A stretch of 64,000 nucleotides of DNA from a phage, in the sequence record OZ335963.1. The stretch is one strand, 5' to 3'. Below are positions 38,811 to 39,642 of the stretch, one piece after another; the stretch's first letter is position 1, and every line of letters begins with the position of its first letter. The notes under the pieces are model-generated. The model saw nothing but the letters and a program-made list of their open reading frames with translations, did not search any database and was not told where the DNA came from. The position numbers and the translations under genes are program-made.

Positions 38811-38886
38811 TGGTCGAGGCAGTAGGGATCGAACCTACGACCTAGGACTTAGAAGGTCCTTGCTCTTCCTTCTGAGCTATGCCTCG
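38811..38886 (-). tRNA. tRNA-Arg (anticodon UCU)
   Basis: Hand-folded cloverleaf; anticodon loop CTTCTAA; T-loop GGTTCGATC; CCA encoded. Confidence 0.85.
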
Positions 38887-38890
38887 TATT

Positions 38891-38965
38891 TGGCGGACAT
38901 GCATGGATTCGAACCATGGACCAATTGATTAACAGTCAACTGCTCTACCACTGAGCTACACATCC
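38891..38965 (-). tRNA. tRNA-Asn (anticodon GUU)
   Basis: Hand-folded cloverleaf GGATGTG...; anticodon loop CTGTTAA; T-loop GGTTCGAATCC; CCA encoded. Confidence 0.7.
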
Positions 38966-38969
38966 AAAT

Positions 38970-39056
38970 TGGTGGGGAGTGATGGAGTCGAACCACCCGA
39001 GTCGCAATGACAATGGATTTACAGTCCACACCGCTACCTCTACGGGATAACTCCCC
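38970..39056 (-). tRNA. tRNA-Tyr (anticodon GUA), long variable arm
   Basis: Anticodon loop CTGTAAA; long variable arm as in bacterial tRNA-Tyr; CCA encoded; D-arm is atypical. Confidence 0.55.
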
Positions 39057-39069
39057 TTAATTCTTAATT

Positions 39070-39144
39070 TGGTGGCCCTGGGTGGAATTGAACCACCATC
39101 TGGCGATTATGAGTCGCTTGCTTGAACCTTCCAGCTACAGGGCC
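39070..39144 (-). tRNA. tRNA-Ile (anticodon CAU; Met/Ile not distinguishable from sequence)
   Basis: Anticodon loop CTCATAA; Ile assigned by analogy with T4 tRNA-Ile. Confidence 0.75.
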
Positions 39145-39145
39145 T

Positions 39146-39221
39146 TGGTGCTGATTGACGGAATCGAACCGCCGACATCCTCATTACAAGTGAGGTGCTC
39201 TACCTACTGAGCTAAATCAGC
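39146..39221 (-). tRNA. tRNA-Thr (anticodon UGU)
   Basis: Cloverleaf GCTGATT...; anticodon loop CTTGTAA; CCA encoded. Confidence 0.85.
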
Positions 39222-39226
39222 AAAAC

Positions 39227-39316
39227 TGGCGGAGGCGATAGGATTTGAACCTATGAGTCGCCGGAGCGACTGCCGGTTTTCAAGACCGGTGCATTAAACC
39301 ACTCTGCCACGCCTCC
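39227..39316 (-). tRNA. tRNA-Ser (anticodon UGA), long variable arm
   Basis: Cloverleaf GGAGGCG...; anticodon loop CTTGAAA; CCA encoded. Confidence 0.85.
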
Positions 39317-39318
39317 AG

Positions 39319-39392
39319 TCTCCGCGGCAGGATTTGAACCTGCGACATTCTGCTCCCAAAGCAGACGCTCTACCAAACTGAGCTACACGGAG
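39319..39392 (-). tRNA. tRNA-Pro (anticodon UGG), CCA not encoded
   Basis: Cloverleaf CTCCGTG...; anticodon loop TTTGGGA; abuts tRNA-Ser as in the T4 Pro-Ser dimeric precursor. Confidence 0.85.
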
Positions 39393-39402
39393 TAAATTAA
39401 AT

Positions 39403-39476
39403 TGGAGCGGATAATGAGAATCGAACTCACATCATCAGATTGGAAGTCTGAGGTAATGCCATTATACGATATCCGC
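39403..39476 (-). tRNA. tRNA-Gly (anticodon UCC)
   Basis: Cloverleaf GCGGATA...; anticodon loop CTTCCAA. Confidence 0.85.
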
Positions 39477-39481
39477 AAATT

Positions 39482-39568
39482 TGGTGCGAGAAGTGGGACT
39501 CGAACCCACAAGGAAATCATTCCGCAGCATTTTAAGTGCTGTGCCTTTACCAATTTGACCATTCTCGC
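39482..39568 (-). tRNA. tRNA-Leu (anticodon UAA), long variable arm
   Basis: Cloverleaf GCGAGAA...; anticodon loop CTTAAAA. Confidence 0.85.
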
Positions 39569-39569
39569 G

Positions 39570-39642
39570 CTGGGAATAAAGGACTCGAACCTTTGCATCT
39601 AGCAGTCAAAGTGCTATGCCTTACCAACTTGGCTAATTCCCA
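39570..39642 (-). tRNA. tRNA-Gln (anticodon UUG), CCA not encoded
   Basis: Cloverleaf TGGGAAT...; anticodon loop CTTTGAC; first tRNA of the cluster. Confidence 0.85.

Follow-up and report, generated by a model that had tools for sequence, protein, structure and literature searches.

The window analyzed here is a stretch of 64,000 nucleotides (nt) of phage DNA (sequence record OZ335963.1) from a Tequatrovirus, that is, a T4-like coliphage; its best matches among deposited genomes were 96-97% identical, and none was identical. The element under study is its cluster of transfer RNA (tRNA) genes. A scan of the whole window with ARAGORN found ten tRNA genes and no more, which lie contiguously at positions 38811-39642, all on the minus strand, with intergenic spacers of 0-13 nt. 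In transcription order, the cluster comprises tRNA-Gln(UUG) (39569..39642), the class II tRNA-Leu(UAA) (39482..39568), tRNA-Gly(UCC) (39403..39476), tRNA-Pro(UGG) (39318..39392), the class II tRNA-Ser(UGA) (39227..39316), tRNA-Thr(UGU) (39146..39221), a tRNA with the anticodon CAU that is probably tRNA-Ile2 (39070..39144), the class II tRNA-Tyr(GUA) (38970..39056), tRNA-Asn(GUU) (38891..38965), and tRNA-Arg(UCU) (38811..38886). All ten matched the Rfam family RF00005 above its gathering threshold of 29 bits; nine scored between 59 and 75 bits (with 66 bits for tRNA-Gln and 72.6 bits for tRNA-Asn), and the score of tRNA-Tyr was marginal (30.2 bits). An earlier reading made from the letters alone (the sequence-only reading) had proposed ten tRNAs with this order and these anticodons, a clean cloverleaf for Asn, and a class II long variable arm combined with an atypical D-arm for Tyr. 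ARAGORN and Rfam recovered the cluster as proposed, and the ARAGORN drawings gave a clean cloverleaf for Asn and, for Tyr, a long variable arm together with a C.C mismatch in the D stem. Both programs accepted Asn and Tyr, the two genes on which that reading had made itself depend.

The CAU-anticodon tRNA was labeled Met by ARAGORN. However, all the matches listed in E. coli genomes were annotated tRNA-Ile genes, aligned over their full length at 76-82% identity, and the T4 gene in the corresponding position is annotated tRNA-Ile. These comparisons argue that the gene most likely encodes tRNA-Ile2, which is lysidine modified and reads AUA, and they make the Ile assignment of the sequence-only reading a better call than Met; in annotations, the gene should be named Ile2. 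The alignment also showed that a CCA end is encoded in the tRNA-Ser of the window and is absent from T4 tRNA-Ser. It is likewise absent from tRNA-Pro and tRNA-Gln, which must therefore depend on the host CCA-adding enzyme.

Downstream of tRNA-Arg, and on the same strand, lie homologs of the T4 stable RNA genes rnaD (species 2, as annotated in T4; 38691..38806, 88% identity by blastn) and rnaC (species 1; 38545..38683, 98.6% identity over 139/139 nt). No Rfam family matched these two homologs (38545-38806, minus strand). They are followed at 38471..38494 (minus strand) by a sequence with a 10-bp stem, 7 GC pairs, and a T-run, predicted to be a strong intrinsic terminator that ends the tRNA/stable-RNA unit. 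In phage Kha5h, a terminator is annotated downstream of rnaC.

Comparison with T4 and other Tequatrovirus genomes

In T4 (NC_000866, 71173-72530), the corresponding order is Gln, Leu, Gly, Pro, Ser, Thr, Ile, segB (666 bp), Arg, rnaD, and rnaC; the T4 record thus contains eight tRNAs, with Tyr and Asn absent. The sequence-only reading was correct on T4, in which segB separates Ile from Arg and there is neither an Asn nor a Tyr gene. Its claim that segB is missing here was equally well founded: a tblastn search of the whole window with T4 SegB revealed no homolog (best E-value, 1.6), and the interval between Ile and Arg holds no open reading frame (ORF) of at least 40 amino acids except chance ORFs overlying the tRNA genes. 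T4 lacks Tyr and Asn because the homing endonuclease gene segB occupies their slot.

The cluster shares its genomic slot and orientation with that of T4. The counterparts of T4 trna.2 and e.8 are found at 40269-40534 and 36750-37013, respectively, both on the minus strand, and the tRNA genes lie on this strand between the trna.2-side ORFs and rnaD/rnaC/e.8. In a three-way alignment, the window is almost identical to T4 from upstream of Gln until some 12 nt into the Ile gene, and the match resumes at the 3' end of Arg to run through rnaD and rnaC. Between these points, a block made up of a T2-type Ile, Tyr, Asn, and a T2-type Arg stands in the place of the T4-type Ile, segB, and the T4-type Arg.

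The cluster brings together, as a mosaic, alleles that are already known. Identity to the T4 counterparts amounts to 97-100% for Gln, Leu, Gly, Ser, and Thr; Gln (74/74), Leu (87/87, as also in T2 and T6), and the T4-type Thr (76/76) do not differ from T4 at all, Gly is identical at 73/74 positions, and Ser equals that of T2 (90/90). Ile and Arg are of the T2 type (75/75 and 75/76) and are far diverged from the T4 alleles (47/75 and 48/76). Tyr, also of the T2 type, is identical at 86/87 positions to T2 and at 85/87 to T6. In contrast, Asn belongs to an allele type shared with JB75 and Kha5h (75/75 in both cases), as opposed to 63/75 in a gapped alignment with T2, and Pro is of the JB75 type (73/75), as opposed to 63/75 with T4 and T2. 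The differences between alleles respect the structure: among 16 position-by-position differences between the Asn gene and that of T2, five stem pairs are changed on both sides and still paired, and among 12 differences between Pro and T4 Pro, the same holds for four stem pairs, with no pair lost in either case. This pattern argues that Asn and Pro would be working tRNAs under purifying selection.

By singling out Asn and Tyr against T4, the sequence-only reading had implied that the cluster is unusual, and this was not borne out. T2 contains an Ile/Met(CAU)-Tyr-Asn-Arg block without segB, T6 contains segB directly after Tyr, and both JB75 and Kha5h annotate the identical ten tRNAs in the identical order; these ten are annotated in hundreds of Tequatrovirus genomes. 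Among phage records, the whole 1,351-bp cluster is covered to at least 80% in 458 and the 183-bp Tyr+Asn segment in 446, whereas the T4-type segB reaches this coverage in only 126. Furthermore, Brok-Volchanskaya et al. (2008; PMC2330249) had determined the sequence of the tRNA region in T2L, RB1, and RB3 (EMBL records AJ880101, AJ884577, and AJ884578) and described extra tRNA genes and no segB. The cluster is thus the segB-free, T2L/RB1/RB3-type tRNA operon of Tequatrovirus, which is already known and represents the commonest layout among T4 relatives.

With the T2L/RB1/RB3 region, it shares the absence of segB, the order Gln-Leu-Gly-Pro-Ser followed further on by Met/Ile(CAU)-Tyr-Asn-Arg, and rnaD and rnaC downstream, the likeness to RB1 and RB3 being one to the published description of their layout. 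It differs from T2 in two respects, namely, that T2 contains the ORF trna.1 where the window keeps the T4-type tRNA-Thr, and that Asn and Pro represent the second allele type mentioned above. With T6, it shares a tRNA-Tyr with the same variable arm and the same D-arm, but T6 has segB just 3' of Tyr, and no tRNA for Asn, Pro, or Ser is annotated in its cluster.

Several relatives, including Kha5h, contain some 360-550 extra bases in the cluster region, which is otherwise collinear; the Kha5h insert is located between rnaC and tRNA-Arg (2780-3272 of the compared stretch). These extra bases point to further insertions or deletions, possibly of other mobile ORFs, at a recombination hot spot.

The D-arm of tRNA-Tyr

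The low score of tRNA-Tyr raises the question of whether the gene, barely accepted by the software, is a decaying pseudo-tRNA, which would leave only nine of the ten genes functional. Its Rfam score exceeds the threshold by little, the tRNA-Sec model outscores RF00005 on a short stretch, and in the register chosen by ARAGORN, which places two nucleotides between the acceptor and D stems, the D stem consists of U.G, C-G, C.C, and C-G, and a G occupies the normally invariant A14. In addition, the tRNA-Tyr of T6 was described as relatively unstable (PMC13096335). The same study, however, detected the T6 copy by northern blotting and showed that it rescues infection. The sequence is also conserved at 85-87/87 positions across T2, T6, JB75, and Kha5h. 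The fold itself contains the GUA anticodon, the long variable arm, G1-C72, and A73. These are features important to tyrosyl-tRNA synthetase (TyrRS), and they are those expected of a functional gene.

We gathered 23 distinct sequences from phages, an E. coli plasmid, and IMG/VR viral contigs, the sources including T2, T6, Vequintavirus naam, Felixounavirus VpaE1, the T5-like phage misterkot, the Klebsiella T4-like phage Hyena, and a ~110-kb plasmid. All 23 members follow the pattern of a 7-nt acceptor strand, UA, a dinucleotide NN, CCGU, a loop of 7-8 nt, and GCGG. The family varies freely at NN (TA in 9 members, TC in 6, GT in 4, TT in 3, and GA in 1). The canonical connector of two nucleotides (positions 8 and 9) appears not to be what this tRNA-Tyr possesses. 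When the connector is set to 4 nt, 100% of the D-helix cells are paired over the 23 members, including one CUGU/GCAG double change, whereas the 2-nt register of ARAGORN pairs 58.7% and contains one pair that never forms. This comparison is partly circular, since the pattern used for collection fixed the D-stem consensus, and the independent evidence for the 4-nt register is that NN varies freely and that one double change occurs.

For the tRNA-Tyr of the window, the 4-nt register yields a perfect 4-bp D stem and a D loop, AGAGGUA, that supplies the canonical A14, R15, G18, G19, and A21. The computed energy of the cloverleaf is -27.5 kcal/mol, as compared to -20.8 kcal/mol in the 2-nt register, a difference of 6.7 kcal/mol. 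Over the entire molecule, pairing in the family amounts to 99.1%, and 15 of the 24 pairs show changes on both sides, a number reached in none of 500 shuffles. This covariation renders the pseudogene reading untenable, and we regard it as extremely improbable. The two extra connector nucleotides instead account for both the low score in Rfam and the spurious match to tRNA-Sec; standard tRNA models would impose the wrong register on this family. Minimum-energy folding of single sequences returned a cloverleaf neither for tRNA-Tyr nor for E. coli asnT and was not used as evidence on function.

An identity as tRNA-Sec was considered and discarded. The match of 34.4 bits was limited to a short stretch and fell below the Sec threshold of 47, and the anticodon is GUA and not UCA. 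The implied 9-bp acceptor stem requires a U.C mismatch, and this stem is not kept in VpaE1.

Judged from the family alignment, the atypical D-arm noted in the sequence-only reading is real and appears to consist of two extra nucleotides between the acceptor and D stems that are a conserved family trait. This 4-nt connector is the only mildly new point of the locus; a literature search for an earlier description of extra nucleotides in the D-arm of phage tRNA-Tyr returned nothing specific, which does not prove novelty. The family, with its invariant U8-A9 followed by NN, extends over five or more lineages of coliphages or enterophages as well as over phage-plasmids, and one may speculate, with considerable reservation, that the connector is an adaptation. 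If this were true and not already described, the connector might alter recognition by host nucleases that target tRNAs or by modification enzymes, and TyrRS and ribosome function would have been retained despite an expanded elbow connector.

Two further oddities were noted among the compared relatives. Klebsiella phage Hyena (275-359 of the compared stretch) and Citrobacter phage CF1 (296-380) each contain an 85-nt tRNA-Asn(GUU) whose variable arm is long and class II-like, an unusual feature for Asn. Phage naam contains a 99-nt tRNA-like gene (3-101 of the compared stretch) close to its tRNA-Ser/Tyr/Arg genes that is annotated as "tRNA-OTHER" and to which ARAGORN assigns a four-base anticodon.

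SegB and the history of the Tyr-Asn pair

The preferred 27-bp target site of SegB lies within the gene for tRNA-Asn in segB-free phages, and following coinfection with T4 and T2L, 99.6% of the progeny inherit segB, whereas the T2L block of tRNA-Met, Tyr, Asn, and Arg is excluded (PMC2330249). We rebuilt the 27-bp site from the T2 sequence (GGTTCGAATCCTATCACGTCCGCCAAA). It differs from the weak Ser site of T2 at exactly positions 6, 16, 18, 26, and 27, and since these are the bases named in that article, the rebuilt site can be considered validated. The corresponding site in the window, GGTTCGAATCCATGCATGTCCGCCAAA, lies at the 3' end of tRNA-Asn (38889-38915, minus strand) and is identical to the T2 Asn site at 23/27 positions. 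It keeps all five preference bases (G6, A16, G18, A26, and A27), and its differences are confined to positions 12, 13, 14, and 17, in a part of the consensus that was called degenerate (PMC2330249). Based on this identity and the conserved preference bases, the phage is predicted to be a SegB homing target. By this mechanism, SegB cuts the tRNA-Asn gene of a segB-free phage, and repair copies segB in, overwriting the Ile/Tyr/Asn/Arg block. In mixed infections with a segB-carrying phage, the phage studied here would be expected to lose that block.

These data bear on the question of which state is the older one. One possibility is that the Tyr-Asn pair was gained recently by horizontal transfer from another coliphage or a phage-plasmid and that either the segB state or an empty site is ancestral. 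Close relatives of the tRNA-Tyr indeed occur outside Tequatrovirus, with about 96% identity in Vequintavirus naam and 84-87% in Felixounavirus and T5-like phages, ~110-kb E. coli plasmids carry Asn-Tyr-Thr at about 90% identity, and the mosaic of T4-, T2-, and JB75-type alleles would also be consistent with such exchange. However, the block occupies the same position in 446 records, as compared to 126 with segB, and segB is a demonstrably mobile element that actively overwrites the block; the authors of the 2008 study concluded that segB is a recent acquisition of T4 (PMC2330249). On these three grounds, a recent gain of the pair appears improbable, and the data are most simply explained by the Tyr-Asn pair being the older state within Tequatrovirus, although an ancient transfer of the cassette between phage groups may have taken place. 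At this locus, the model phage T4 would be the atypical case, two tRNA genes having been overwritten by a selfish homing endonuclease.

The plasmids merit a separate comment. Circular E. coli plasmids of ~110 kb, as exemplified by p009_B (NZ_CP048306.1, 2997-3243), contain tRNA-Asn, Tyr, and Thr in the order Asn-Tyr-Thr, plus Ser, with Tyr and Asn about 90% identical to those of the window; the search in question returned 244 E. coli genomes. Since their tRNA genes adjoin genes for a DNA ligase, a glutaredoxin, and an integrase, these plasmids look like phage-plasmids that share the tRNA cassette.

Possible roles in codon supply and resistance to host defense

In T4, the tRNA unit is transcribed as one precursor that is cut up by host RNases. 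By analogy, the ten tRNA genes of the window, followed by rnaD, rnaC, and the intrinsic terminator, would form one transcription unit that is expressed as a single precursor and processed by host RNases.

Considering the anticodons, the tRNAs fall into two groups. The eight tRNAs of the T4 set read codons that end in A and are rarely used in E. coli. Relative to a 40-gene sample of E. coli K-12, these codons are 1.6- to 13.9-fold enriched in the ORFs of the window as retrieved with a simple ORF filter (e.g., AGA, 13.9-fold; AUA, 4.6-fold; ACA, 3.5-fold), which corresponds to the classical picture of codon compensation. Tyr(GUA) and Asn(GUU) differ in kind, as each duplicates the sole host isoacceptor for its amino acid. 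Tyr accounts for 4.54% of the codons in the window ORFs as compared to 2.37% in the E. coli genes (1.91-fold, the highest ratio), and Asn for 6.17% as compared to 3.52% (1.75-fold). Together with Lys (1.77-fold), they are the three most over-represented amino acids.

For this reason, both genes might serve translational supply only, meeting the demand of an AT-rich phage without any role in defense evasion. The three top enrichments and the good fit of the remaining cluster to codon compensation are in line with this possibility. Other observations are less easily reconciled with it. Lys is equally enriched, yet there is no phage tRNA-Lys in the cluster. Chihara et al. (2026; PMC13096335) reported that the Septu system EcB88 stops T6 by cutting tRNA-Tyr in its variable arm and that the T6 tRNA-Tyr is expressed; its overexpression or its SegB-aided amplification restores infection under Septu, deletion of the T6 tRNA region increases sensitivity, and T4, which has no tRNA-Tyr, cannot escape. 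The dosage of tRNA-Tyr thus decides escape. Because segB is absent from the window, the phage cannot draw in cis on the SegB-driven amplification described for T6. Similarly, Retron-Eco7 is neutralized by a T5-like tRNA-Tyr, an effect that requires the long variable loop of this tRNA (PMC12673091; Azam et al. 2024, PMC11555353). The same tRNA-Tyr family, which carries this long variable arm, recurs in unrelated coliphage lineages and phage-plasmids, and the recurrence and the arm fit a defense-driven cassette better than a tuning to the codons of one genome. Overall, supply as the only role seems unlikely, if less so than a recent gain of the pair.

The tRNA-Tyr of the window is linked to these anti-defense tRNAs by sequence kinship, as shown by its identity to T6 and by a variable arm in which only the first base differs from misterkot, a T5-like phage. 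With the T5-like tRNA-Tyr, it shares membership of the family, the UA+NN connector, and the CCGU/GCGG D stem, whereas compensated changes set the acceptor, anticodon, and T stems apart; the T5-like phage compared was misterkot, and the Retron-Eco7 articles used SP15.

We therefore favor, by analogy with these relatives, a dual role in supply and as a spare pool. Tyr and Asn would top up the supply of the amino acids that, with Lys, are most over-represented in phage proteins, and Tyr at least would act as a spare pool when Septu or Retron-Eco7 destroys the host tRNA-Tyr. That the copies of this phage behave like those of its relatives is inferred, as is a role of Asn in supply or backup, and for Asn a backup function is suggested by analogy only. 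Several points weigh against the dual role. Septu EcB88 also cleaves the tRNA-Tyr of T6, which was described as relatively unstable (PMC13096335). We found no report in the literature of a phage tRNA-Asn that relieves the block by a defense system, and the sole test found, that of SP15 tRNA-Asn against PrrC170, was negative (PMC11555353). Since GUA and GUU read both synonymous codons, the two tRNAs leave the strong preference for UAU and AAU unaddressed and can meet only total demand, the enrichment of which was derived from the 40-gene sample and the simple ORF filter. Moreover, T4 grows well without either tRNA, so any benefit would be conditional. Taken together, we nevertheless consider it highly probable that the cluster is a segB-free operon in which Tyr and Asn have a dual role and that segB has overwritten this pair in T4. 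Phages with tRNA-Tyr may infect hosts with Septu- or Retron-Eco7-type defenses better than T4 does.

As for the surroundings of the cluster, a sigma-70 promoter scan of positions 38300-40300 returned one weak site, as compared to 4.3 expected by chance, and was uninformative, the tool not modeling the early and middle promoters of the T4 type. Three flanking minus-strand ORFs are without equivalents in the corresponding part of the T4 map. They gave no significant Pfam match and, in PHROGs, matched families of unknown function only. An ORF of 171 amino acids (39729-40244; phrog_2290) is located just upstream of tRNA-Gln, and two paralogs of 157 and 187 amino acids (37943-38416 and 37254-37817; both phrog_2280) lie downstream of the terminator. 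Finally, JB75, the closest relative, annotates two small "hypothetical proteins" over the rnaC/rnaD stretch (2531-2850 of the compared stretch), which is probably a mis-annotation.

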